DNA of 64,000 nt from Candidatus Micrarchaeota archaeon (GCA_018819225.1 JAHJQN010000004.1:194813-258812); one strand, 5' to 3'. Positions 1-60,200 are shown, numbered from the stretch's first letter. Numbers and translations: made by a program. Notes: generated by a model not told the origin, from the sequence alone.

Positions 1-423
1 TCGATTACTCCTAGTAATAACATCTTTTATCGTTCCCAATCGAACATTTAAATCGGCCTGTTTCCCTTCTCGAATGGCATCTTTGAATGCAATAACTCGC
101 GGATTTTCCATACCGTGATCTCGTAAGTGATCATGAATAGCGGTTAAAACGGAGGACACACGTTCTGACGGAATTCGTGTCAAATGACTTTGTTCTATTT
201 GTAGCAATAGTTGATCTTCAACCATTTTTCCATGAAGGGCGGTCGTAATATCTCTAAAAGTTGCAGATGGAAAAATTTTTCTCATTAGTTTGGTATGCGA
301 CTCTCCATTTCGTCCCAACATTACTATTGGTTCGGTTGGATGCACTATAAAAGTAATGTCTGAAGTCGGGGTCCGAATTAATCGACTGCTTTTCCGAACT
401 ATAATTTCTTCATTCCGATTCAT
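1..423 (-). CDS. hypothetical protein, N-terminal part only (gene continues beyond window start); low-GC
   Basis: Minus-strand reading frame from ATG at 423..421 (MNRNEEIIVRKSSRLIRTP...) runs open to position 1; AT-rich codon usage like neighbouring island genes; no recognisable motif. Confidence 0.4.
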   Translation of the reverse strand, partial: MNRNEEIIVRKSSRLIRTPTSDITFIVHPTEPIVMLGRNGESHTKLMRKIFPSATFRDITTALHGKMVEDQLLLQIEQSHLTRIPSERVSSVLTAIHDHLRDHGMENPRVIAFKDAIREGKQADLNVRLGTIKDVITRSNR

Positions 424-643
424 AATTCCGTTTCTTGTTAAGGGTATTTAAATCAGGCGCTGGGGATGGGAGCAGGAAGAAAAGTTCCGGTCCCTCTCGC
501 AAAAGGAAAGCCCCGGCGGGAACCGACCAAAAAGGTCAAAGCCCTCAATAAAACGACTCGGAAGCGGGAAAAAAAGGCTAAATGAACCTATTCAATAGAT
601 ATACAATAATCAGATCCGCACCATTATTCATTTAAAGCCCTTA

Positions 644-1864
644 ATGAGTATTAAGTTGATGTTAATTGAGCTTCGAATAAAGCCAGGTAAGTTAAAGCTA
701 GTTCGAATGATAAACAAAATTTCTAAAAAATGTCATTTATCAAGTCGAAAAATACACAGAATACCTCACATTACAATATACGGCCCTTTCAAAGGTCGTG
801 GTTCAAATATTCGAAGTATTAATCAGATTTTAGCTCAAATTGGATCAAAATATGGACCATTGGAATTCCAAGTAAAAGGTTTCGAGTGGATGCAGGGCGA
901 GCATGGAAAAGTCATTTACTTCAACATTATACCTTCACCAGATTTAATAAAAATTCAAAAAGAACTTGCGTTTGAATTAAGTACAATTACGCCTAGTAAT
1001 AAAGAATGGGATAAATTTGGAAAATATACATTTCATTCTACTTTAGCATACCGACTAACTGATTCAGAGTTTAAACGCGTTTGGTCTTACGTAAATAGTG
1101 TTCCAAATTTTAAAACTAAAGTATTGAGTTATTTTGGAATTATTAGTCCTGATCGGAAATTTAAAATTAATGATTTTCATTTTCCAATGACTGCGTTCCG
1201 AATTACATTCCTCAACGACTATAGCAAAATCATTTCAGAATATGATTTTGTTACTCATCATATTCTAAATCGTTATGAAGCATTAAACCCAAAAGAATGG
1301 TCTAAAACTTTATGGAAATATCGCATAAATCGCGGAATAGAATTGTCTAACAATATTTCTTCAAAATCCTCTAGCGGACCGTACATAATTAGCGATACTC
1401 ATTTTGGTCATGAAAATATTATCGAGTATTGTATTCGTCCGTTTTCGTCTATTCATGAAATGAATCGAGTACTTATTTCAAATTGGAATCGGATTGTCAA
1501 ACCTAATGATATTGTTTATTTCTTAGGCGATTTATCGTTTGGAAGAAGTAAAAAACCTCCGTCTTATTGGCTAAACCAACTAAATGGAGATATTAGATTT
1601 ATTAGGGGAAACCACGATGACTTAGTTTTGTTAGGGAAAAAACACGAATACATTGATTTTGAAGGGGAAAAAATACTATTAGTACATGATCCAAAAGAAA
1701 AACCAAAAAATTGGAGTGGATGGATTATACACGGTCACAATCATAATAATGATCTTTCACGATATCCTCTGGTAAATAATACGAATAAAACAATCAACGT
1801 TAGCAGTGAACTAATCAATTATTCCCCGATTTCTCTTAAATATTTACTTTCTTTTCGAAAATAG
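644..1864 (+). CDS. 2H phosphoesterase (LigT/2',3'-cyclic phosphodiesterase-like) fused to calcineurin-like metallophosphoesterase
   Basis: N-terminal half has two H-x-T/S-x motifs (HITIYGPF, HSTLAY) typical of 2H phosphoesterases; C-terminal half has MPP motifs DTHFGH, GDLSFGR, GNHDD; AT-rich. Confidence 0.7.
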   Translation: MSIKLMLIELRIKPGKLKLVRMINKISKKCHLSSRKIHRIPHITIYGPFKGRGSNIRSINQILAQIGSKYGPLEFQVKGFEWMQGEHGKVIYFNIIPSPDLIKIQKELAFELSTITPSNKEWDKFGKYTFHSTLAYRLTDSEFKRVWSYVNSVPNFKTKVLSYFGIISPDRKFKINDFHFPMTAFRITFLNDYSKIISEYDFVTHHILNRYEALNPKEWSKTLWKYRINRGIELSNNISSKSSSGPYIISDTHFGHENIIEYCIRPFSSIHEMNRVLISNWNRIVKPNDIVYFLGDLSFGRSKKPPSYWLNQLNGDIRFIRGNHDDLVLLGKKHEYIDFEGEKILLVHDPKEKPKNWSGWIIHGHNHNNDLSRYPLVNNTNKTINVSSELINYSPISLKYLLSFRK

Positions 1865-2138
1865 ACGGTATTCATTCTTCTTTTAAAGAAAATCTATCTA
1901 GCTGCCTTCAATAACAAATCGGTGTATGGGAAGATAATATTCGTCATTCCCATCAACAATCCATAAATTAACGATATAAACTCCTGGCCCATCCGTTAAA
2001 TAATCACCAATTCCTGCTTCGACTTCAAATAAACCCGAAGGATTCGCATTCCATTTTCTTGGATACATGTATCGGGCATCATCTAGAAAATGACCGGGTT
2101 CGATAATTGCGGTTACATAATTATTTTCTAACTTAAAT

Positions 2139-2537
2139 TCACCAGCCGAATTTAATCGGCTTCATAGAAAAACCAAACGGCGATACCCGTTTTCTACGTT
2201 TTTTTCTTTTCATTTTCTTTCTTGGTTTAATCGCTTCTCGGGCATGCCTTTGCATTCGTTGAAACTCAGCCCACGATTTCCTTCCCATGTTCTTGTTACA
2301 TTGATAGCAGAGAACAACCGTGTTCTTAATCGTGGTTTTGCCTCCAGTTGACCAAGCCCGTTTATGTCCAAATTGAGCGGCAGGGTAATCCAATCGTTTT
2401 CGACAATTTTGACATCTTTTTCCTTGTTGAGCCCAAACGATTTGTTTCTGATTCGTCGGAAGTGTTCTTTTGTTATCCCTCCTCGGATCATTAGCCCCCC
2501 ATATCATGCGTTCAAAATTTCGGTTAGTTCCATACAT
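2139..2537 (-). CDS. HNH endonuclease
   Basis: C-x2-C ... H ... N ... C-x2-C arrangement (CQNCRKRLD...HKRAWSTGG...NTVVLCYQCN), basic C-terminal tail. Confidence 0.75.
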   Translation of the reverse strand: MYGTNRNFERMIWGANDPRRDNKRTLPTNQKQIVWAQQGKRCQNCRKRLDYPAAQFGHKRAWSTGGKTTIKNTVVLCYQCNKNMGRKSWAEFQRMQRHAREAIKPRKKMKRKKRRKRVSPFGFSMKPIKFGW

Positions 2538-2563
2538 CTAAATCCCCCATTAAATCTTGATCG

Positions 2564-2860
2564 TTAGAATCTCCAGACTTCATAGCTTCGCTTGTGCTTC
2601 CTATAAGTCTTCCGTTGTAATTTTGAAAGACGTGCTCTACCCGATTTGACTTCTACTAGTTTTTTCTTTTTCCTTCCAGTACGCCAACTACGCTTTGAAA
2701 CCTCGTAGTCAGACCCCCGACCTGTTCTTTTAATACTATAGCCGTGTAGTCCATAACGGGTAATTGCCAGGTCTTCCGCCATCTTGCCTTTTGTTTTATT
2801 TCGAACTAAACGTGTACGTTTTGCTTCTCGCAATAATCCGCCAAGAAGACCCAATTCCAT
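2564..2860 (-). CDS. hypothetical small basic protein
   Basis: 98-aa Lys/Arg-rich ORF co-directional and 27 nt upstream of HNH gene; no motif recognised. Confidence 0.35.
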   Translation of the reverse strand: MELGLLGGLLREAKRTRLVRNKTKGKMAEDLAITRYGLHGYSIKRTGRGSDYEVSKRSWRTGRKKKKLVEVKSGRARLSKLQRKTYRKHKRSYEVWRF

Positions 2861-2979
2861 CTCCTAATGGCAAAGCGTTAAACTCCTTTTTTAAGGCATA
2901 TCCTACAAGAGAGTACAGGGACCTTTTTATTAGAATAAAAATATGAAAATCGATAGTGCACTTTAATAGTTGACGACAA

Positions 2980-3948
2980 ATGGAAGTATATGAAATAATG
3001 TCAACTCCGCCAATAACGGTTAGATTAACGGATAGTGTACATAAAATTCAAAAATTATTTTACAGGCATAAAATTGCTAGTATTTTTGTCGTTGAAAATG
3101 GAAGAGTTGAAGGGCTAGTTACAAGAAAGAACTTTTTTTCAAGTAAACATTTTCTTAGACACAATTCAACTGCAAAAAATGTAATGACAAGAAACGCATA
3201 TACAATTCATTCAACTGCCGGCGTAGATACTGCTTCGGATTTAATGATTCAATATGGTGTCAATAGTCTTGCTGTAATCAGAAGTGGAAAAATTGTAGGG
3301 GTAGTCACCCGATTTGACTTTAATAAACGCAAACGAGAGCATAATCCGCCAACCTACATTCAGTATACGCCAAATCCGCCATCAAACAATAAAAGTTTTG
3401 GTTTTTATATTTTTATAAGCATTATTTTATTGTATCTAGGCTACACTTTTATCTACCCCATTATTGAATTTAGTAATACTAGTTCAATAGAATTTCTAAT
3501 ACACCAAAAAATCAATTATGAACGCGGTAAATACAGACTTCCACATTTAATGTACGATAGTTCATTACAAAGAACTGCAGACAAGCATAGTATAGATATG
3601 GAAGAAAATAATTTCTTCGACCATATTAATAAACAAGGGAAAGATCCCGCTCAAAGACTCTACGAACAAGGATTCTCGTGTTCAAAACAATACGGTAACC
3701 TAATTTATTCAGGCGTTGGCGAAAATATTGCAAAAGAACCAATTTTTAGCCAAAGGGGATTTTTAGCCATTTTTCCATACGTTATTTGGAACGATAAAGA
3801 AAAAATTGCCTCGGCAACAGTGGAAGGATGGATGAAAAGCCCAAGTCATAGAGAAAATATCTTAACTGCTCATTATTCGTCTGAAGGAATTGGTGTTCAT
3901 AGAAGTACTTTTGGAGAGTATTTCTATATAACTCAAAACTTCTGTTAG
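2980..3948 (+). CDS. CBS-pair domain / transmembrane / CAP (SCP, PR-1-like) domain protein
   Basis: Two CBS-like repeats at N-terminus (VVENGRVEGLVTRKNF; VIRSGKIVGVVTRFDF), central hydrophobic helix (FGFYIFISIILLYLGYTFIYPII), C-terminal CAP signature (HRENILTAHYSSEGIGV...GEYFYITQNF). Confidence 0.65.
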   Translation: MEVYEIMSTPPITVRLTDSVHKIQKLFYRHKIASIFVVENGRVEGLVTRKNFFSSKHFLRHNSTAKNVMTRNAYTIHSTAGVDTASDLMIQYGVNSLAVIRSGKIVGVVTRFDFNKRKREHNPPTYIQYTPNPPSNNKSFGFYIFISIILLYLGYTFIYPIIEFSNTSSIEFLIHQKINYERGKYRLPHLMYDSSLQRTADKHSIDMEENNFFDHINKQGKDPAQRLYEQGFSCSKQYGNLIYSGVGENIAKEPIFSQRGFLAIFPYVIWNDKEKIASATVEGWMKSPSHRENILTAHYSSEGIGVHRSTFGEYFYITQNFC

Positions 3949-4032
3949 ACCGTTTTATATTGAGTAGTTAGGGCATTGTGATATCGTGTTCAAACCCGGC
4001 CTGCGGCATAGACAACGGTATACGGAAAAAAG

Positions 4033-6044: not shown

Positions 6045-6174
6045 AGCCCCCGGCGAGAATCGAACTCGCGACCTCCTGTTTTCTCGCTCTTGCTTTTTTG
6101 GTCGAGCTTTTCTTAAAGAAAAGGTCGGGTGGCAAGGTTACGAGACAGGCGCTCTTCCGCTGAGCTACGGAGGC
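6045..6174 (-). tRNA. tRNA-Thr(CGU) with ~57-nt intron at canonical 37/38 position
   Basis: Reverse complement reads GCCTCCG-TA-GCTCAGCGGAAGAGC-G-CCTGT-CTCGTA[intron]A-ACAGG-AGGTC-GCGAGTTCGATTCTCGC-CGGGGGC-T; acceptor, D, anticodon and T arms all pair; intron 3' region (GCAAGAGCGAG) pairs with anticodon-loop/exon (CTCG..CTTGC) as expected for BHB. Confidence 0.75.
6098..6129. repeat. palindromic T-rich hairpin motif copy 1 (TTGGTCGAGCTTTTCTT-AA-AGAAAAGGTCGGG), inside tRNA-Thr intron
   Basis: 8-9 bp stem CTTTTCTT/AAGAAAAG; same motif recurs at 6204-6240, 7584-7622, 7842-7882. Confidence 0.6.
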
Positions 6175-6203
6175 ATAAATGTTTTTTCAAATGCCCATTT
6201 CAT

Positions 6204-6240
6204 TTGGCGGAGCTTTTCTTTATAAAAGAAAAGGTCCGCG
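6204..6240. repeat. palindromic T-rich hairpin motif copy 2 (TTGGCGGAGCTTTTCTTTATAAAAGAAAAGGTCCGCG)
   Basis: Perfect 9-bp stem CTTTTCTTT/AAAGAAAAG extended by GCGGAC/GCTCCGC; lies between tRNA-Thr and a 21-nt partial copy of its 5' end. Confidence 0.6.
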
Positions 6241-6244
6241 CTTC

Positions 6245-6265
6245 CTTCCGCTGAGCTACGGAGGC
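6245..6265 (-). repeat. 21-nt partial duplicate of tRNA-Thr 5' end (acceptor + D-stem/loop)
   Basis: cttccgctgagctacggaggc identical to 6154-6174. Confidence 0.7.
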
Positions 6266-6304
6266 AACTTTATTTTTTATGAACCGTTTGTTTTAAATGG
6301 CAAT

Positions 6305-6353
6305 GGGGGGTAGGGGCGACCCGCGTAAGGGGAACTCCCCTTGGAGGGGGTCC
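6305..6353 (+). ncRNA. GC-rich structured element copy 1 (GGGGGGTAGGGGCGACCCGCGTAAGGGGAACTCCCCTTGGAGGGGGTCC)
   Basis: Two hairpins (GGG-GCGA-CCC GNRA-like; AAGGGGA-AC-TCCCCTT); second copy at 48061-48108 with two compensatory base-pair changes in the second stem. Confidence 0.45.
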
Positions 6354-6520
6354 TGGGGTGCGGAGGCATTCTGACAACAAAATGCGCATTGTTTATGGAC
6401 GGCTTTTGTTTAAAAAAACGTTGGATACTGGATCCGGGGATGCAACCAGACATTTAATAATATTCAGGCGCTCTTTTCAATCGTATTTCACGAACGAAAT
6501 CAAGGGAGGCTGATAAACGG

Positions 6521-7105
6521 ATGCCACACAAATGCGTCAAATGCGGAAAATTGTATCCGAACATGGCGCCAGAGCTCATGAAAGGCTGCGAATGCACGTC
6601 CCGCATCTTCTTGTTCTTGCGCGAAAGCCAAGTCAGCGTCAAGGAGACCATGGAGTTGCTGCAGGAAGAGAGCCAGAAGCTCGTGGAAGACACGAAAGCC
6701 ATTCAAGAACTCGCCGAAGCCACGCCCATCACCATAGAAAAAATCGAGCTGCCTTCCGTACCCGTCAAGTCCATGGTGGAACAACAGGACGTGCACGGCA
6801 AGCCCCACGTCATTCGAGTACAAGAAAAGAAGGATCCTGAAAAAGCCGTGGATGAAATCGAGGAAGCGGACATGGAATCCGATCAAGAAGATGACACGGA
6901 CGGGCTCGTGGACGGGGACATGGAGAAAACCGTTTTACCCGTTGACGCGGACGGAGAACCCGTTGAAAACATCACCATCCTGGAAAAGGGATCGTACGAG
7001 CTCAACATCGAGTCACTCATGGCGGGTAACCCGCTCGTCATCCGAACCGAACGCGGAATATTCTACATACGCATTCCGACGCCCGTCAACCAAAGGAATC
7101 GGTAA
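6521..7105 (+). CDS. Zn-ribbon domain protein with acidic C-terminal region
   Basis: N-terminal C-x2-C ... C-x-C (HKCVKCGKLY...GCEC), acidic low-complexity middle; ends overlapping next gene start (ATGG). Confidence 0.5.
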   Translation: MPHKCVKCGKLYPNMAPELMKGCECTSRIFLFLRESQVSVKETMELLQEESQKLVEDTKAIQELAEATPITIEKIELPSVPVKSMVEQQDVHGKPHVIRVQEKKDPEKAVDEIEEADMESDQEDDTDGLVDGDMEKTVLPVDADGEPVENITILEKGSYELNIESLMAGNPLVIRTERGIFYIRIPTPVNQRNR

Positions 7106-7433: not shown

Positions 7434-7557
7434 GGGCCCGTAAGAGAAACCATCTCCGGGACGCTCAGCTTGGATAGAGCGATTGCCTCCTAATCACTCG
7501 CGGATTGCAAGTGGAGGGGAAAGCAATAGGTCGTGGGTTCGAATCCCACCGGGCCCG
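7434..7557 (+). tRNA. tRNA-Arg(CCU) with ~29-nt anticodon-loop intron and an unusual 20-nt insert between acceptor 5' strand and D stem
   Basis: GGGCCCG...[20 nt]...GCTC-AGCTTGGATA-GAGC-G-ATTGC-CTCCTA[intron]A-GCAAT-AGGTC-GTGGGTTCGAATCCCAC-CGGGCCC-G; acceptor strands complementary; canonical T loop. Confidence 0.6.
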
Positions 7558-7583: not shown

Positions 7584-7634
7584 TGGTCGAGTTTCCTTCC
7601 CAAGAAAGGTCGTTCAGAATCCCGACCGGGCCCG
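7584..7634 (+). repeat. hairpin motif copy 3 plus degenerate partial copy of tRNA-Arg 3' end (GGTCGTTCAGAATCCCGACCGGGCCCG)
   Basis: TTGGTCGAGTTTCCTTCCCAAGAAAGGTCG followed by T-arm-like + acceptor-3'-like sequence sharing ACCGGGCCCG with tRNA end at 7547-7556. Confidence 0.55.
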
Positions 7635-7673: not shown

Positions 7674-7790
7674 GCGGAGGTCGCATAGTGGCTATTGCGG
7701 CAGCCTGCTATCTTTTTGCAGCGAAGGCTGCGGAAGGTTGGAAAGCTGTTGGCGCTTCGCGCCTCGTGGGTTCGAGTCCCACCCTCCGCG
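7674..7790 (+). tRNA. tRNA-Ser(GCU), class II with long variable arm and ~16-nt intron
   Basis: GCGGAGG-TC-GCAT-AGTGGCTA-TTGC-G-GCAGC-CTGCTA[intron]G-GCTGC-variable arm (GGCGC-TTC-GCGCC)-GTGGGTTCGAGTCCCAC-CCTCCGC-G. Confidence 0.75.
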
Positions 7791-7841: not shown

Positions 7842-7897
7842 TTGGTCGAGCTTTCTTTACAAAGAAAGGTCGTTCGGAATCCTTACCCTCCGCGCTA
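7842..7897 (+). repeat. hairpin motif copy 4 plus degenerate partial copy of tRNA-Ser 3' end (GGTCGTTCGGAATCCTTACCCTCCGCGCT)
   Basis: TTGGTCGAGCTTTCTTTACAAAGAAAGGTCG (8-bp stem) then sequence sharing ACCCTCCGCGCT with tRNA-Ser 3' end. Confidence 0.55.
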
Positions 7898-47749: not shown

Positions 47750-48055
47750 ATGAACCGCGCTCGCATCAAACTCGAAAGCAAGGAATACACGGACTTGGAC
47801 GCGGTCTGCGTTCAAATCAAGGATATTGCCAGGAAAGCGGGCGTTGAGCTCAAGGGACCCATTCCACTGCCGACAAAAAAACTTCGCATCTCTACGCGGA
47901 AGACGCCGTGCGGGGATGGAAGCGACACGTACGAAAAGTGGGAAATGCGCGTGCACAAGCGCTTGATCGAGATCAAGGCAGACGACCGCGTGCTGCGCGA
48001 CATCATGCGCATCCGCATTCCTGATAGCGTCCACGTCGAAATGCTTCTAAACTAG
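47750..48055 (+). CDS. rps10: 30S ribosomal protein S10
   Basis: RIKLESKEYTDLDAVCVQIKDIARKAG...THKRLIEIKA typical S10; tuf-rps10 adjacency. Confidence 0.9.
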   Translation: MNRARIKLESKEYTDLDAVCVQIKDIARKAGVELKGPIPLPTKKLRISTRKTPCGDGSDTYEKWEMRVHKRLIEIKADDRVLRDIMRIRIPDSVHVEMLLN

Positions 48056-48060
48056 TTTAC

Positions 48061-48108
48061 GGGGGTAGAGGCGACCCGCGTAGGGGGTGGAACCCCCTGG
48101 AGGGGTCC
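48061..48108 (+). ncRNA. GC-rich structured element copy 2 (GGGGGTAGAGGCGACCCGCGTAGGGGGTGGAACCCCCTGGAGGGGTCC)
   Basis: Same architecture as 6305-6353; second hairpin AGGGGGT-GGA-ACCCCCT carries two compensatory pair changes relative to copy 1. Confidence 0.45.
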
Positions 48109-48114
48109 GCAGAT

Positions 48115-48168
48115 ATCATGCGCATCCGCATTCCTGATAGCGTCCACGTCGAAATGTTGCTTAACTGA
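48115..48168 (+). pseudogene. displaced duplicate of the S10 gene 3' end (last 17 codons + stop)
   Basis: 41 nt identical to 48003-48043, then ATG TTG CTT AAC TGA versus ATG CTT CTA AAC TAG: same peptide IMRIRIPDSVHVEMLLN* with synonymous changes only; out of frame with rps10. Confidence 0.7.
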
Positions 48169-51201: not shown

Positions 51202-54200
51202 TCATGGTTCAATGGGAACTCCTGCGGATTGTCGCAGGGTGTTCAATGCTTCAGGATACTTCGTATCATCAAACTGTTTTTGCGCCACAGGAATCGCGTC
51301 TTCCACAGCCTGCGGGCATCCATCGTTGATACACCATTCGCGGAAACGCTTTAATAAAGCCTCCACTGCCTCTTTCGGCGATGCTGGAACCAAAGTCACT
51401 GCGTTCGTAACCGTTGCACCCGTGACCGTCGTGAAAACAGGTGAACGGAAGTCCAGTGGATCCGAGTAAGAATGAACAAGAGAAGGATCGGGAACAAACG
51501 AAGAGGCAACAGGAACATTAGGATCAAACATCGACGTAATGAAATAATCAGGGGACACTCCTTTGTTGAAAGAGGTCACTAAATTGTATTGAGGAATTCC
51601 GGCCAAAACCGTTCCTTCAGTAAGATAAAGGCACGCGTGTTCGGAATCCGGACACAATTCTTCCGTGTCCACCCGGTTCGCGCATTCATTCAAATCCTTT
51701 TCATTGCGGAAACAGTATTCTTTCATGGAAGCGGCTTGGCCTTCCTCATTATGGTATACGACGAGATGGTTCCCGAAACGGTAATCCAATTCAGCGCGCA
51801 CGGGACGCACTTCCGTGTAAAACAGCAAGGGCGCAACCAGTGATCCTATCAAGCTGATACCCCGGAAACTTTTCTTTGTAAACGACGACTCCTTAACTGC
51901 GTTCCCAACGGAGCGGAAACGTCCGGAGCGGGAACGAACCGCATCGAAATCATCGGCAAGCGTTTTGGATGCTTGTTCAACGGCATCGTCGAATTTAGTC
52001 AGGGTTCTAGCTTTCGTGGCGCGATCGCGTACGTGCTCAATGATTGCGCGTTCTTCCGTATTTGTCAATGCGCCACCCAAAGCATTCCGCAGTTTACCGT
52101 TCAATGAAGTGCGAACAAATCTGCCACTTCCGCCTTTGATTTCATTGACGGCCACTTCATCGTAATTGCGCAATACGTTTGCAAGTTCGTCGGGGGTGAG
52201 AATGCGTCTGAAATCGAGGTCAATAGGTCCTGCAGTTTGAGAATATAATTTCCATAATTCATCCGACACCGCTGACGGTCGGGCATCGCTCCTAAGGAAA
52301 GCAGATAACGTTTCCGATTTTCCATATAAATTATAATTTGGAGGCAGACGATTATTAATTAATTCATCCACTACTTTTTCTCGTATATTTGGATCCCTAT
52401 CAAGGGCGGTGAATAAACTTCTAATCTTGGTATTGAATTGATCTTGCGTCGGGGCTATTGTCCGAGATACGTCGGTGAGTTCATTATAGAGCGTCGTACG
52501 AGTTCCGGGTGCGGTAAGATCCACCCAGGCATTCATTCGCGCCCGTCCGTCCGCTCCAGAAAGGAGTTGAGTGAAATCATTGACGCTGCTTCTTGGCACA
52601 AGAGCAGTTTCTCCCGGGGTATGAATCAAGTTGACGAGCGCACGAGAAATCGTTGAGGAACTAATCGTGCCGCCGGCTGTTTGGGTATAACGAGTGACCA
52701 AAGCGTCCGCGAATTCAAGCGACATGCCTTGGTGCATGAAGTAATCGGTCATAAACGCTCGGCTGCCGAACGGACGGAATACTTTGGAAGCGCCCGCCAC
52801 AATGGGAACCGTAGCAGGAGTAATACCTGGTGCGAACTCGCTATCTAGGACCGTATTCGAGCCTCCGAGAATGGCACTTAATGCACCAGTAACCGCCAAA
52901 TTACCGATCAATTCATTACCTCCTCGACGTGCCACCTGACTGGCAAATGTACTAGAGAGTAAGCCGCTGGCTCCAGTTATTGAATTGACTCCAGGAACAG
53001 CACCGGTTGGAAGAACCAAGTTAAGATAGAAATCAGTTAGAGCAAATGTTTGGAACGAAATACATGCATTGATTCCTTCGCATATTCCGACGCGTGAAGG
53101 CGCAAGGGAATCAACGGCAATGGATGCGGTACAACCCGTGATTCCGGTAACCAAGCTGTAAACGCCCTGCGCAAGACGAGGGGCGAATACGGGAGCGGCA
53201 AAAATGCTTCCGACAATTGCGACTAATGCGCCCGGAGCACCAGCTAATAATAATGCACCGGTTGCTTTTCCTCCGTTTTCAATGCAGGCACCCGTATCTT
53301 CGAATGGAACCGCCTGTGATAAGGGGTAATCGTTGTATCCGTAAAGGGTGTTCAACAGCAAATCGGCGTGCCGTTCATCATCCGCGCTGGGCGCTTCGCG
53401 GTATGGACCAATAGAGAATATGCGGAATTTTTCAAAAAATCCAGTATCCCCTTCCCGTTTCTTATTGGTCCAAATAATGTGCGGATTCGGTTCTCTTCCA
53501 ATGATGACTTCCGGCGTGTCCGCGGTCAACAGGTTCGTGTTGTACAATTTTTCCTCGCATGCAAGAAAACGAGTTGGAGAAGGCAAAGAGCTGTCCACAT
53601 GCATTTCAATGAATGAAGATTTCAACCACTCCTCCTTATTAGGTCGTAGCTCACATAGACCCAGGCGCGCAGTTGCAATGTAAATACCGCATTGATCGGC
53701 AGTACCCGTTGCAGTATATTTGATTGATTTCTTGCCGCCGACAAAACCGAATTCACCTAAACCTTCTTGGAAAGCGGTTTGAAGATCGTTCAAATTGATT
53801 TTCGTGTTCGCCATTTGAACGACAACGCTTTTACGGTAATCGCGGTTGAATGCGCGAACAACGGGATCGGATGGATTGCAGAACTTATTGAGCTCTTCAT
53901 TGAATTTTTCGTCTTCTTGTGTATAGAAGGTTGTTATGAGTTGAGCCACTTGTGCTCCGAATCCCTTGAAAGCTGCTTTCGCCTCATCTGCAGTGCAGAA
54001 GTTTGTGGAACAGGGTATGACCGCGTCAGCCACTCGAATAATCCCTGACGGAACAACAGAAACTGGAGTGGTTGGAGCACTTGCAGGCGGAACAGATGGT
54101 GCAGAATGTGCCGGCACTGCTGGTGCGGGTGTTCCCGGGGGCACACCACTCGCAGGCGTTAATGATGGAGGCATAGCGGGTGGATCGCGGAGTATAAGAT

Positions 54201-57200
54201 CCCCAAGCGGTGTGCCGGAAAAGAGGTTTTTCATAGCAGGGTTCGCGGGATCGATTTCATACGATTCAACATTTACGAACTTGGAGTCCGTTTTTCCGTT
54301 GATGGATCCTTTGAACTTGATCTCCATGTATCCACTCCACGGGCGCAGAGACTCGCATTCTGAAATATAGCCTTCTCCGGCACGCAACGAAGTGGGAATG
54401 TCGCATCGTAAGAAACCGGTTCCGTTAGCGGAATAGGTTTGATAGTTAAGCGTCACCGACTCATCGAGATTGTTGGCCATGGAAATCCATCGCTTGTGAC
54501 CCAAATCCTTGAACACCAGTTTTTGGGGCGCCGTGGTTTTCACGTTTTGTTGCGAGCGGTCATAATTTACGTAGAAACCACCCAGCGCGTCTCGAAGTTG
54601 AGCGCGAAGAGAGCCTACGCACGAACCGGTTTTCTCGAAGGTGAGAATCAGTTTAGCGGGAACGAATTGCGCGCCGCTTCCCCGGTAATCATAAAATATT
54701 TTGACGTCGCCTTCCAAGGGACCGAGTTCATCCAACTTCTCTTGAGGCAACAAACAGCCATCATCATCCGTATACTGTTGAGGTACTTGAACCGAGAACA
54801 AGAATTGCTGCACCTGGCAAGCCGCATCCTCATTCTTATCCTGTTGGGCTTTACCCGCCAGAATCATGTGCGCGCCTTCATCCCAAGCGCTGGGTTTGCG
54901 AATCTTTCGAATCACGCCCTCCAACTCGGAACTAATGGACTCGCCAGAAAGCGCGTTACGGCTTTCCGCAGTCCAGCTCTTCTCGTCCTCATCACCGGAA
55001 ATATCCATGTAAACGCTTACTTCCGAAGGAGCGTCATTCAATACGCAGAATCCTTTCTCCACGATTCCTTCCACGTTCGAATCCGTGAACTCAAAGGTTT
55101 GCTCCTTGGGCTTGATGCGAATGGGCACGAAATTATCGGTAATCATGGCGAAGCCATCCGGATTGCGGGATGGACGCTCGCATAAAATCAAGGTAGTCTT
55201 CGAATCGGCGGGAACGGAGATCTGCTGGGGTTCGTCCTTCTCTTTCGGAAACGGATTCATGTCAGAGAACCAAATCTCTTTCACTTGAGGCAATTGATAA
55301 CTCGTTTCGCCGCGGACATTGATTTGTATTTCGCGGCACCCCTGCAAGTCAACGCGTTTCGTCATGCTATGGATTTCCGTGCTCACCTCCGGCGCGTCCT
55401 CAGGCAATAAGTATACGACGTCATCCGTGAACGTGGCGTGGAACTTGTATTTCTTGTCCGTATCCTGGCAGATGCGCGTCACGAACCGCGTGTCGACCGG
55501 AATGGAGAACGTGACCGCGTCTTCCGTTTCATCCGCTTTTTCGACGTCATCCGCCATCAAACGCATGCCATTGAATTCAAACAAATCATTCTCCGCGTTG
55601 TCTTCCATTGCGAGCTCCGTGCAAATGCTCAAGCGGTAAGACTGCATGATGTCGCCATTCTTTTCGAACGGTTCCTCAAGGAACTTGTCGAATGTTTCTT
55701 GCGGAACATTCACGTCCACATCATTCGGGAAGTGATGAAAAACAAAGTCAACGCCTTGCAAGCCCGCAAGGTCCTCATCGATCATGACGAACGTGATGGG
55801 AACATTGCGTTCCACGAACAAATCCTTGTACGGTTCAGCGGCTTGCAATACCGGTCGGAAGGGAAGCTCAACGTTGTAACTGTACGTCGTAACCGCGTTC
55901 TTGACCACGCGGGCGTTCACCGGAAAGTGCAAGACGACATCCTGCGGGAACGTGACCGTAAAGCGGTCCTCCCCGAAGCGTTGTTCCTCTTCCTGTAACA
56001 TGCTGTAATCGAATACGATGGACACGGATGGCGGTACTTTGAGGTCGCGGCGTTCGCCGAATTCCTCATCTTCAATCGAAGCGCCTTTGACGAGCATGCG
56101 TTGGTTGGACGGGAATTCTAACAGATGGCGGTCATCCTTTACGCTATAGCGCGCGTTGACGTTGAACGGCAACGTCATGTCGAAACCGACTGGCAAGCGC
56201 TTTTCATTACCCGTCATGCCAAAGTCAGGGCGACCGAAAATAATTTGAGTGAGAGGCATGACTTCGACCGTCCGGGAACCGTCCGGCGCTTTCAAGCCCG
56301 CACGAGCGACTCCGTTCAAGAAACTCATTTCCAGGTAATCCGTGGAAATGCTTTTCGCGCGCACGCCATCCGGAGCAATATTCAAGGATACTTCAGGGCC
56401 GTCGCGTACCAAGAATAGGACGCGGAAAGGCAGGCTCAGAACGATCTCGCCGTTATAGGTTCGTAATGCGAACGGCGATGGAATGCGCAAGGCACTACCG
56501 GCTGGAATCGTGACGCGTTTGAAATCACGCGCGTCCATTGAAATAATGGCATCGGAAGGCAACGAAATCGTGTTTCCGCTTTGGAATTGAAGGGCTTTTC
56601 CTCCGCTAAAACTGTCTTTCTTGACGCGAATGAATTCCTCGATGATGAACGTGGCTTCAACGGGGAACTCGACTTCTAAAGCGTCTTGAGAGGAAATGAT
56701 GGGCGTCAACGAAATCTGAATGGGTTGGTGCGCGTTGACGCGGACGCGGCGTTCTTCACCCGAATAGGGGCGATATTGAGTGGAACTCGTCGGGTACTTG
56801 ATGTCGAAATCGTTGATGGAAGCCGTTTCAAAAGCCCCTTCGCGAGCAAACTCGGTTTCCGTTGGGAAATCGAGGTATACGACGACGGGCAAGCGGAGTT
56901 CCCAACCGTATTGCATGAAGTTGCGCTGGTAAGGCGATAGGTAACTACGGTACGTATTGTAACCTTGCACGGGAATGCGTCGCGCATAGCGGGCGGGAAC
57001 TTCAAAGAAAGCGCCGGAAGGAATGACGGCCACTAGACTGCCGCCTCCTTGCTCGATGGAAAACGTGAAGGTGCTCGAGTAAGGCGAGGATTGTTGCAAA
57101 TCGTTGAGATCTCCCACGCGAACGTCTGCATCAAACAGCATGGTGTCCCCGCTCGGAAGCTCAATGAAAGTCGAGCCATCCGGATTAGTATGCGTAAGCG

Positions 57201-60200
57201 TATTGGGAGGCAATTGCAAGACGATTTGCATGGGAAGCGATATGCGCACGCCTCCACTCACGCTTTTCACTTCGGGTTCGACGGCTTGGCAAGTGTGATC
57301 AATGGCGGCCTCGCTTTCTCCGCATTCGAGGAACTCGCACACTCCCGAAGAACAGATTTCATCATTGGAACATTCATCATCGGCAACACAGCCGGGTTCA
57401 GGGGTCGGAGTGAACGTGACTCCTGCCGGATAGATTTCCACGCGAGTGGAAAGGCAAGCGAGATTGCCGGCTTGTGCGCGAACCTCGTAACGACCCTTCG
57501 AACTGTAGTAACAGGAGGCCGTGCAGCTACCCGTGGTTCCCGTGCAACTCACGGCATTGGATGTGCGGCCGTTACCGCAATTTACGACAACGACGTTTGG
57601 GGCGCGATTCAAGTCATAATAGTCAACAGTAATGGTACTCGTCCCTTCTTCCTCAATGCGGTTCGGATCCGCATTTAATGCACAAGTGGGTACTAACGGA
57701 GTGGGAACCGGAGTCGGCGTCACGAATTCCGTTGGTTCGGGAGTTGACGTCGGATCCTCATCGCCCGCATGCACGTCCCTGCAATTTTCGGATGAAGACG
57801 CGGTATACGTAAGTCCGACGCGCTTGCGGGACGTGATTCCGAGCGTGCTCGCGTAAAGCGTTAATGTACCGTCGCGTTCATCGTCCTCTAGATCGCACGG
57901 ATCCACGGGATACGCGCGCGCCACCACCTTAAATTCCGCTGAATCCCCTGCGGCAATGGTTTGCGAAAGCGGTTCCATGTATACGTTGGAGAGCGTGCTC
58001 TGGTAATTGATGAGAATGGGATAATCGGCGTCGTTGGTAACGACCATGGTTTGCGTGTCACGGGGTTCGCGAGGCGGTTTCAAGGTAAACTGCAGGGAAT
58101 CAGCTGAAGCAGACCACAACGCCTCCAAGTCCTGTTGGGTAAACGAAGAGGCGATCGTGAACGGAACGGATTCCTCTTGGTCGTAGCTGCCCAAGCGAGC
58201 TCGTACGAGGAGGCGGCCGGAAACGGTTTCGGATAGAGTGTTCGCACGAGCTGCAACGGGCAAAATAGTATCGAGAATGCGGGCTCGCAAATTGATGGAT
58301 TGGGTATCGCGCGCTTTCAAACGGAAGGAGGAAAGGTCGACGGATACGTCCGTATACTGGGGGTTGCGTCCAAACTGCATTTGAACGGAAACGCGTACTT
58401 CATTATCCAATAGGTTAGTGACGCTGAAACCTTGTTCTTGATTGTCGGTCGAATCAACGGTTAATGACAAGGTTTCCCCTTCCACGGAAATGAGTTCATC
58501 GCCAGTGACGCGCAGGAAACCGCGTTTGACCTTAAAGCCTTCGGCCTCGACCTGGTAGGTGACGGTCCCGATCGCGACGGGGTGAATGCCTTCCACGCGG
58601 TACTGGGCACTGCCATCCCGACCCTCGGAAAAAACGCCTTCAATGATGGCGCCGCGGAGGGCATCATTCCCGTTTCCAACGGATACGTAGGCATGAGAAA
58701 CCGGCAGCCCCAATGAATCTTCGACGGCAAACGTCACCATGTTGTCTTGAAGTGCTTGCAATGAAGACGGACGATTCGTCACTTTGAGATCGGGTTTGGT
58801 GCCGACCACGCGGACGTACAGCGAACGAGTGATCACGGTTTCCGCGTTGCGTACTTGAAGCTGCAATGCCACGTCATTCGAGAGACGCTGGGCTTGAATC
58901 AAGAACTGGCCTTCCGCATTGTCTTCAGAAGTCGTAATAGTGATCAGTTCCTGATCGCCTGCGGAACGCGCCACCGCGCGACTTCCACCGGATGAACCTT
59001 CCGTTAACGTGATCGATTCGTCGAGAGCAGATGAAGAAAGCTCGACCACGGTTCCTCTTGGAGCCGCTACGTGGAATTGAAGCGAAAAGGTTTCGCGAAT
59101 TTCCGCCTCATAATTATCCAAAGCGCGCCCATTTTGTCCTTCGAAGAAGTAATCCAAACAAAGATCGTCTTCACATAATCCACCAAATGAAATGGGTGCG
59201 GTAATCGTTTTCATGTTCGCGAGAATGGAAGATGTCGAAGCGGTTTCGTCGAGGGGATCGCGAAGGGTTTCGCGCGCGGTGTCGAAAGCCGAACGGTATT
59301 GCAACATAGCCGTTCCATCGGAAACCGCTTTGGTTCGCACAAACACCGCGATTTCCTTCGTGCCTTCAAACGGTTGGAACGTGAAATGAACGTATTTATA
59401 CGCGGGCTGGAATTCCGGATCCGCGAACTCCAATTCCTCCGCAGGCGTCGGGGAAGGCGTTTCCGTAGGGACATCCGTAACGATAACGGGGGACAAATCG
59501 TATAACGTTCCTTTTGTGACGAAAGCCGTGCCGGCTTCGTAACCAACGATTTCAACGAGCTCGTTATCCAGCGAAGAATCCGCTGAACCGACGCGCACGT
59601 GAACTTCAGCCCTTGAAACGTCGACATTGGGGCGAGTCAACAAGAATTTGGCTTTGTAAACCGTTGAAGGCGATAACGAAGAGGCTTTGTTGCTCTTCAA
59701 ATCATACAATCCCTGGAAAACGATTTGCGATCCTCGGGCGCCGGAAGGCAGCAGTTCAAACGAATCCCGATTCGTGATCCCGGGAATGACTTCAAATTCA
59801 GACGATAGCAAGGTTTCATACCCTTCCAGGGAAACGCGAGCAACATAAAACCCTTCCAAGATATCCACCGCGCATTTACCGCGTTCCGTGACGCACGAAT
59901 CCTCTTTAATAAACGTTCCGCCGGAAAACGATAATTCAACGAGGGCACCATCCAGAGATTGATTCGTAAAGTAATCATAAACGGAGACGACGAGCTTGGC
60001 TTTTCCGGGCTGCAAGATCACTTCAATCAAGTTGACTTCAGGTTCTTCCCCGGTTCCGTCAATCGAAATCAATTCCGGATTACTTTTTCCTTCCCGGCCC
60101 GCGAAACTGGCTTTGACAAAAATGCGTTCCAACGGAACATCGGGAAAATCAGCGGATCCATCGGCGGACGTGAACTTTTCGGAGATGCCCATGGGTTTCC

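Follow-up and report, generated by a model that had tools for sequence, protein, structure and literature searches.

A covarying hairpin element at gene ends of Micrarchaeota and its possible nature as a small mobile DNA family

Two short GC-rich hairpin sequences, each beside the end of a gene and 42 kb apart, occur in a 64-kb stretch (hereafter the window) of a 709-kb contig of Candidatus Micrarchaeota, a DPANN archaeon. Base changes that preserve pairing between the two had led an earlier note to propose selection on structure, either in a noncoding RNA or in a structured DNA recombination site. Which of the two is it, and how did such sequences come to lie at the ends of genes? Here, we describe the family to which the two sequences belong (element E), its sites in relatives, and the gene fragments that accompany it.

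Two copies between duplicated gene ends

Both quoted sequences were present on the plus strand of the window, at 6305-6353 (copy 1) and 48061-48108 (copy 2). A repeat search pairs the two, with an ungapped identity of 75% over 48 nt. Sequence and covariance-model match, together with the structural alignment for copy 1 and the fold for copy 2, extend the element to 6304..6355 and 48059..48110 (both plus strand). Copy 1 was recovered at E = 1.3e-08 by a covariance model built without it, and a 17-sequence model scored copy 2 at 68.7 bits (E = 3.3e-15) and copy 1 at 58.2 bits (E = 1.2e-12). These two are the only copies in the window; with the filters of the covariance search off, no further candidate in the 64 kb was better than E = 0.16.

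Copy 2 begins 3 nt beyond the stop codon of rps10 (ribosomal protein S10; 47750..48055, plus strand), a gene identified by its translation, Pfam PF00338 and the source annotation name. The expressed last 18 codons of rps10 (DIMRIRIPDSVHVEMLLN) with the stop codon (dupA; 47999..48055, plus strand) recur as a displaced second tail (dupB; 48112..48168, plus strand) that starts ~4 nt past the hairpin foot, as found by repeat search and codon comparison. The peptide and stop of dupB are identical to those of dupA, and the six nucleotide differences are all synonymous. The gene-end insert position that had been assigned to this copy is therefore real and stronger than claimed, since the rps10 3' end is present as 57-nt copies on both sides of the element.

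Copy 1 likewise occupies a gene-end insert position, between two ~70% identical copies of the 5' end of a tRNA-Thr gene and its upstream DNA. The gene (anticodon CGU; 6045..6174, minus strand; Rfam RF00005, 54.2 bits) carries a 60-nt insertion, and its 5' end is the duplicated target. Local and pairwise alignments place the left duplication, the tRNA-Thr 5' end (as complement) plus ~55 nt upstream, at 6160..6228 (plus strand). The diverged right duplicate (CTGGGGTGCGGAGGCAT...; 6353..6418, plus strand; ~70% identity with small indels) starts directly after the hairpin foot. The 5' half of tRNA-Thr has, in addition, been partially duplicated in tandem, and this duplicate, with an AT-rich hairpin (6200..6278, plus strand; repeat search), sits between tRNA-Thr and copy 1.

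The other neighbor of copy 1 is an OapC-like gene (6521-7105; Pfam OapC, origin-associated protein). Its adjacency and the G-rich strings of the element prompted a comparison with origin recognition boxes (ORBs), which carry G-strings and have the consensus GTTCCAGTGGAAAC-AAA----GGGGG (PMC1868953). Neither the ORB nor the mini-ORB consensus is found in element E, however, and its inner stem varies freely, whereas a protein-binding box is expected to have a fixed sequence. [quoted passage not shown] The consensus mismatch and the dispersed copies effectively refute the ORB reading, to which we assign a negligible probability.

The window also contains a second, AT-rich hairpin family (GGTCGAG-TTTYCTT..AAGAAA-GGTC), with three exact pattern matches against 0.07 expected, at 6100-6126, ~6206-6238, 7585-7611 and 7844-7871 (plus strand). 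One copy is inside the 60-nt insertion of tRNA-Thr, and one variant falls within the partial duplicate of tRNA-Thr. Another two come after the tRNAs at 7458-7557 and 7674-7790, and each of these is succeeded by a degenerate copy of the T-arm and 3' acceptor strand of its own tRNA. The layout of gene end, hairpin and duplicated gene end is as in element E; the AT-rich hairpin sites could be split-tRNA or alternative tRNA-half genes. Rfam finds all three tRNA genes with insertions of 30-60 nt (6045-6174, minus; 7458-7557 and 7674-7790, plus), and ARAGORN finds none. Positions 1-4000 of the window have a GC content of 34-37% vs ~50% in the remainder and encode, at 644-1864, a fusion of a LigT-like 2'-5' RNA ligase with a metallophosphatase and, at 2980-3948, a protein with CBS + CAP domains. 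This region may be an acquired island beside the tRNA-Thr 3' end; no integrase was seen.

A single bipartite hairpin with maintained pairing

Covariance models built from 3 and then 17 copies yielded 17 full copies in addition to truncated, interrupted and variant ones. The full copies come from the window, a GTDB Micrarchaeota MAG (L003), the rps10 loci of relatives and two groundwater metagenomes. A pattern scan of GTDB genomes returned 17 chance matches in GC-rich bacteria and one real copy (L003), and another three, in L058, L059 and L070, came from the rps10 loci of close relatives, where their position is exactly the same. A degenerate-pattern scan of the metagenomes returned nine contigs, six of them from one Hainich groundwater assembly; eight of the nine contain real copies. 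The sample is biased and small because copies were retrieved with sequence patterns.

At the gathering score of Rfam 15, only three tRNAs reach the threshold in the window, and element E is unmatched; at E up to 10, nothing meaningful overlaps the copy 1 region of the window or the L003 copy. The IMG/VR, phage and plasmid collections gave no real match. A viral origin was accordingly rejected, the 38 + 2 IMG/VR pattern matches being chance hits in GC-rich contigs, with the exception of a weak partial resemblance in L078. This IMG/VR stretch (6871-6912, minus strand; TAGGGGGTAGGTGGGC-GCGTAGG...CCTAGAGGGG; 14.5 bits, E = 0.026, a match partly forced by the search pattern) has no outer helix and little inner pairing. 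No description of such an element was found in the literature on Micrarchaeota or DPANN, and the family is previously undescribed in Micrarchaeota.

The element had been described as two hairpins. In a 17-copy structural alignment fitted to the covariance model, the GGG(GCGA)CCC hairpin is paired in only 57% of cells and is never compensated, and element E is instead one bipartite hairpin, in which an outer helix encloses an internal loop and an inner stem. The common order is GGGGG-TAG-RGGC, an outer helix of 5-6 bp, the internal loop, an inner helix of 7-8 bp, and a variable apex. In copy 1, the G-run/TAG box is at 6305-6317 (plus strand), and the structural alignment pairs 6318-6322 with 6348-6352 (outer helix GACCC/GGGTC) and 6327-6332 with 6337-6342 (inner helix; loop 6333-6336). 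The corresponding features of copy 2, also on the plus strand, are the box at 48061-48072, the outer helix GACCC/GGGTC at 48073-48077 with 48103-48107, and the inner helix at 48082-48088 with 48092-48098 around the loop 48089-48091. The internal loop is conserved as GCG(U)/(U)RGAG and ranges from 3x3 to 5x5. GGTAG precedes the outer helix in 13 of the 17 copies, 4-5 nt before it in most. The core measures ~50 nt, or ~75 nt with a stop-codon-rich 5' extension (consensus ATTCGCAGAAGTAA(A/C)TAA) that is present with most copies. The boundary is sharp on the 3' side, at the foot of the outer helix, and looser on the 5' side. Apex length varies between 3 nt and, with apical insertions, 13 nt (L058) and ~60 nt (L070). 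The element is strand-asymmetric, with covariance-model scores of 60-78 bits on one strand vs 11-19 on the other.

Variant forms were also observed. A "class 2" sequence variant exists (GGGGGGAGGCGGCGAC...GTGGTGGGGGCTTAGCCCCCATGGGGTGTC), and its long form has two extra covarying hairpins within the 5' arm (L062, ~490-601, plus; L069, 8450-8560, minus; L065, 648-752, plus). In these three, the two hairpins form a module of ~48 nt that is inserted after GGCGA in the 5' arm; the long form of L070 (1-106, plus) instead has a two-hairpin insertion of ~60 nt in the apex. In 10 of 14 copies, the G count of the 5' G-run tracks that of the inner helix's 5' strand; A-containing G-runs, which are rare (L003; L064/L066), co-occur with A-containing inner stems. 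This correlation suggests alternative pairing, a triplex or shared ancestry. Base pairing between the G-run and the inner helix's 3' strand was considered and set aside, as L003 and L066 do not agree in register. Inspection of the internal loop for a K-turn or a sarcin-ricin motif led to both being dropped because the required bulged-strand GA is absent.

Standard pairs occupy 99.5% of the pair cells in the 17-copy alignment, and 8 of the 12 pairs show changes on both sides, amounting to 36 cells. None of 500 shuffles reached the observed pairing and compensation, and sliding the partner by 1-3 columns as a control lowered the pairing to 37-68%. RNAalifold on an independent MAFFT alignment with flanks gave the same two helices. 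These results support the proposed selection on pairing. The two inner-stem changes quoted in the earlier note, A-T to G-C and A-T to T-A, were correct in the structural alignment, but the innermost A-T of copy 1 is probably unformed because only a 2-nt loop would remain. The note had held that additional copies with broken stems would speak against selection on structure; the search of related metagenomes and genomes did find further copies, and as these leave the stems intact, the claim withstood its own test. The outer helix occurs as GACCC/GGGTC, GACAC/GTGTC, CACAC/GTGTG, AACAC/GTGTT, AACCC/GGGTT and CACCC/GGGTG.

The compensation is nearly all of the Watson-Crick type, with one G-U in 203 cells vs 36 doubly changed cells. 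Many inner stems are palindromic wholly or to a single central base (e.g., AGGAGGGAT/ATCCCTCCT), and hypervariable apical pairs differ among otherwise near-identical copies of one assembly. The palindromy and the Watson-Crick compensation hint at selection or correction at the level of a DNA hairpin.

Strong covariation is also what a host-functional structured RNA would show, either as a cis-acting UTR element (a stabilizer, a terminator or a translation control via GGAGG/GAGGUG) or as a small noncoding RNA, the link to duplicated gene ends then being incidental. Stable tetraloop types occur at some apices (UACG in L059, CUUG in L003 and L063), the 3' strand carries the Shine-Dalgarno-like GGAGG/GAGGUG, and many copies are 10-170 nt upstream of, or just after, a same-strand gene. 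Against this stand the lack of an Rfam match even at E up to 10, helices 1 and 2 that are nearly devoid of G-U, and a palindromy that continues into loops so small that it would not matter in an RNA hairpin. The whole-region fold of copy 1 is no better than those of shuffles (z = -0.6). Together with the distribution of the copies, which is described below and also runs against it, this makes a structured RNA of the host an unlikely explanation.

Occupied and empty sites, duplications and arrays

The rps10 locus allows occupied and empty sites to be compared. Element E follows the rps10 stop in the window, L058, L059 and L070, and is absent there in L060, L071/L072 and L073/L074. The S10 protein is identical in L059 (filled) and L060 (empty), and the downstream gene context is common to L059 and L071 (empty). 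L070 has a copy upstream of tuf, where none is found in the window, L058 or L059. The 2-kb L070 contig starts and ends inside copies, as expected for a repeat that disrupts assembly. A second presence/absence polymorphism at the rps10 locus is a nucleotidyltransferase/HEPN gene pair between rps10 and the next conserved gene, present in L059 (3913-4880) and L071/L072 and not in the window, L058 or L060. Farther along the window, 51202-61563 (minus strand) is a single ORF of 3453 aa, with counterparts of 2843-3657 aa in the same place in L058 and L059; it probably encodes a giant surface protein, and its Big_1/CarboxypepD_reg matches are only faint.

Throughout the family, the element adjoins a gene terminus or lies slightly within it; the terminus is the 3' end of a gene on the same strand or the 5' end of one on the opposite strand. 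Direct target duplications of ~30-66 nt enclose about half of the copies; for about half, no flanking duplication was detectable (L003, L062a, L066, L067 and L061c). The downstream duplicate starts 0-4 nt past the outer-helix foot, and the upstream one ends at a variable distance before the G-run. The duplications measure 53-61 nt at rps10 in three genomes, 52 nt in L061, ~63 nt in L063, 32 nt in L064, 36-54 nt (four times) in L065 and ~66 nt at copy 1. The duplicated 3' ends of same-strand genes are those of rps10, a TadA-like ATPase and a CoA-binding protein. The duplicated 5' ends of opposite-strand genes are those of tRNA-Thr in the window and of an HTH gene in L064, where the duplicate corresponds to the first 32 nt of the gene; in L063, promoter DNA is duplicated. 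Since the target is directly duplicated, the gene keeps an intact end 5' of the element, and the displaced copy follows the foot. A loose TNA before the 5' extension is a weak candidate for a target motif.

Repeated events result in polar arrays (gene, tail, element, tail, element, and so on). In L065 (443-885), five tails of the ATPase gene alternate with four elements; L061 has two units, and in L069 a class-1 copy is nested in a class-2 copy. Among the informative tandem contexts, the orientation relative to the neighboring genes is sense in three and antisense in two.

Presence or absence at one site among near-identical relatives, the flanking duplications, the arrays and the nesting, as well as the mixed orientation, are at variance with the structured-RNA explanation discussed above. 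Of the two alternatives in the earlier note, the evidence leans to the recombination site, through the polymorphism, the duplications at the hairpin foot, the arrays and the nesting; the inconsistent orientation and the Watson-Crick compensation with palindromy into the loop also favor it, and some room is left for an RNA role. We class the element with hairpin repeats or miniature mobile elements. With a confidence slightly above even, we regard element E as a family of small, non-autonomous, structure-defined mobile DNA elements of Micrarchaeota. Several points count against this reading: the lack of terminal inverted repeats and of a transposase, integrase or HUH gene beside any copy, the copies with no detectable flanking duplication, the small and biased sample, and the coding signature of the internal array tails described below. 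In addition, the variable length of the duplication is unusual for a transposase, and the empty sites, instead of never having been occupied, might reflect precise deletion through recombination of the direct repeats.

Coding signature of the displaced tails

The three rps10 tail pairs have identical translations, including lineage-specific residues and the stop, yet differ at 15 nucleotides (P ~4e-8 if one copy were neutral). All 15 differences are within the outer 12 nt of the repeats, and the central 33 nt are identical within genomes and differ by 4-9 nt between genomes. At the 3' end in L059, the downstream tail, not the expressed one, matches the empty allele of L060. The downstream tails of the L065 array, including internal nonexpressed ones, have a pS of ~0.9 and a pN/pS of 0.02-0.13 (P = 1.3e-11 vs neutrality). 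Because the displaced tails look coding, target duplication by a staggered cut followed by decay cannot account for them.

The rps10 pattern could result from gene conversion in the center of the repeat and allelic recombination at its edges. In the L065 array, either tail-plus-element units were imported from other lineages or paralogues, or the downstream tails are somehow expressed; the signature of the internal tails is at odds with plain target-site duplication and, at ~25% divergence, with ordinary homologous recombination. The L065 array gene has homologues of only 48-58% identity, and the two homologue contigs examined both lack element E.

Several simple explanations were rejected. 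The spacing between tails (113, 135 and 124 nt at rps10; 103, 102 and 154 nt in L065) is out of frame, being indivisible by three, which rules out stop-codon readthrough or an in-frame insertion. As to expression as mini-ORFs, rps10 dupB has an in-frame ATG, as do two L065 tails (within the element's loop), and a third tail lacks a start codon. Template and variable repeats of a DGR do not fit either, since the differences between rps10 tails (C/T, T/G, A/T and A/G at synonymous sites) are not adenine-specific.

A further explanation is a selfish unit that acts as RNA, in which the first tail and the element are removed like an intron, or in which the element is an omega-RNA-like scaffold whose adjacent tail serves as a guide for homing and directs a nuclease to empty alleles. 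Such a unit would explain why displaced tails, including the internal ones of arrays, are under purifying selection and why, wherever a duplication is present, a tail starts exactly at the hairpin's 3' foot; the out-of-frame spacing, which excludes readthrough, also suits it. The order of scaffold and then guide is that of TnpB right-end RNAs. However, the three rps10 loci show neither a bulge-helix-bulge (BHB) nor a conserved long-range junction pairing, no TnpB, IscB or HNH partner was seen apart from a small HNH gene in L064, and the expressed tail would itself be a target. The copies at 5' ends and in antisense (copy 1 and L064) cannot be introns of the duplicated gene. Taken together, we consider an RNA-level unit quite unlikely, a shade more so than a structured RNA of the host. 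An archaeal BHB intron in particular was rejected, as the internal loop is symmetric rather than two 3-nt bulges 4 bp apart, and folds of the three rps10 loci share no junction pairing.

An insert between gene-end duplicates, with the expressed copy synonymously different, is the classical signature of elements that integrate at the 3' ends of tRNA and protein genes. The copies of element E might accordingly be scars, attL and attR with little leftover DNA, of larger plasmids or viruses whose tyrosine integrase used gene ends restored by attP. The flanking gene-end duplicates, the synonymous differences between the expressed and displaced copies, and the clustering of the rps10 differences at the repeat edges are all as such scars would have them. 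The insert, however, is always the same structured element of 50-75 nt with sharp boundaries and never other leftover DNA, and the same element occurs at many different targets. No integrase was found nearby, and no real match in the IMG/VR, phage or plasmid collections. Integrative scars are therefore improbable, and somewhat more so than either of the RNA explanations.

Comparison with known systems

Element E resembles several known systems and departs from each in a defining feature. The bacterial REP/BIME sequences with their RAYT (TnpA-REP) transposases, especially the GTAG type such as SMAG, are likewise short GC-rich imperfect palindromes after a GTAG motif. They too are noncoding and intergenic, lie at gene ends, keep their structure while the stem sequence varies, and are presumed to be recognized as folded single-stranded DNA. 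Unlike element E, which is single or in direct arrays, REPs are bacterial, usually very numerous and often in inverted pairs. They also have no long target duplications, which in element E measure ~30-66 nt in about half of the copies.

The attC sites of integrons share the outer stem, the unpaired central spacer, the inner stem and a variable terminal structure (3 to >60 nt), with pairing kept while the sequence is free and the junction at the 3' foot of the hairpin. Integrons, too, form polar arrays of a short insert plus a hairpin site beside a fixed point. The R''/R' boxes (RYYYAAC/GTTRRRY) of attC are absent from element E, whose outer helix is xACyC/GyGTx with no GTTRRRY at the foot, and extrahelical bases are lacking. 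The "cassettes" of element E are copies of neighboring gene ends, not foreign ORFs. Neither an intI integrase nor an attI platform was found among the scanned neighbors; the arrays abut rps10, the TadA-like ATPase gene and the gene of the CoA-binding protein. The word Micrarchaeota is absent from the archaeal-integron paper.

IS200/IS605 elements, which have hairpin DNA ends, are the most widespread IS family in Micrarchaeota and are reported from >65% of their genomes (PMC13343696). The ends of this family and the ORF-less PATEs resemble element E in being asymmetric, with a subterminal imperfect hairpin and no terminal inverted repeats. With TnpB right-end guide RNAs, the flanking sequence comes immediately after a structured right end, as in element E. 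By contrast, IS200/IS605 elements generate no target duplication, need hairpins at both ends and insert 3' to a fixed tetra- or pentanucleotide, whereas element E has one main hairpin and only the loose TNA before the 5' extension. MITEs are also small, noncoding and multicopy, with insertion polymorphism and direct target duplications. Their terminal inverted repeats are absent in element E, whose 3' end GAGGTGTCG is no inverted copy of the 5' extension ATTCGCAGAAGTAAATAA, and their duplications are fixed at 2-11 nt, against 32, 36, 52, 53-61 and ~63-66 nt in element E.

Integrative elements, casposons and CRISPR adaptation likewise place an insert between target copies of 30-60 nt and leave the gene end intact. 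Casposons integrate at the 3' end of the aEF-2 gene. They are also reported to integrate at tRNA 3' ends (PMC6614799). In CRISPR arrays, spacers are added beside the leader, as the units of element E are added on the side of the gene. Element E differs in that its cargo is only a hairpin of 50-75 nt and its duplication has no fixed length. The repeats in those systems are identical copies that decay, whereas the duplicates at element E differ by synonymous changes. No Cas1/casposase or integrase was seen among the scanned ORFs.

Proposed mechanism

Here, we propose a mechanism in keeping with a mobile DNA element, which can only be inferred because no recombinase was found. A trans-acting, structure-specific enzyme would recognize the folded hairpin, probably as single-stranded DNA, by analogy with REP/RAYT, IS200/IS605 ends or integron attC, and would join the 3' foot of the hairpin to the target at a gene terminus. 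The event would be accompanied by a long duplication of the target end or by a copy of it carried along. A copy of the end of the target gene would be part of the unit that is moved or is passed between lineages; a carried tail is assumed because decaying target-site duplications could not keep a coding signature. Such units would be stackable and are probably exchanged.

Pfam searches of 40 flanking and window ORFs revealed no transposase, integrase or HUH gene beside any copy, and the neighbors are housekeeping genes; no Y1 transposase or orc1/cdc6 was found among the ORFs scanned in the window and the short loci. The only nuclease-like neighbor seen is the 160-aa HNH endonuclease gene in L064 (3077-3559, minus strand), 92 nt downstream of an element copy and on the same strand. 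Its proximity may be coincidental because the element sits in a former divergent promoter region.

More speculatively, element E and the gene fragment that follows it might constitute a self-propagating, protein-less "tail-swapping" unit with homology-specified integration, in which the incoming copy replaces the gene end; we consider this possible but doubtful. In the cassette, a recombination site formed by a hairpin (or an RNA scaffold) would be joined to a copy of the target gene end, which would direct the site of integration by nucleic-acid homology. The incoming copy would replace the end of the gene, even of the essential rps10, and the end that it displaces would stay on as the following unit in a chronological array.

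Implications

Element E provides a covariance model that is searchable across Micrarchaeota and a testable link to hairpin-specific recombinases (HUH/Y1, integron-like or Cas1-like). It may be behind the assembly breaks at its loci, as in the L070 contig. The arrays of tails under purifying selection are predicted by no standard insertion mechanism; they suggest either that lineages exchange gene-end cassettes or that the downstream tails are expressed, and either would be mechanistically new. There is thus an appreciable chance that the tail-carrying behavior reflects an undescribed mechanism. If tail swapping were true, it would be an integration programmed by homology or a guide, unlike that of fixed-target transposases, integrons or CRISPR adaptation. 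DPANN archaea have tiny genomes and few recognized mobile elements, and if a structured mini-element can land at the ends of core genes, rps10 and tRNA-Thr among them, and leave them active, selfish DNA would have a new route to persistence in reduced genomes.
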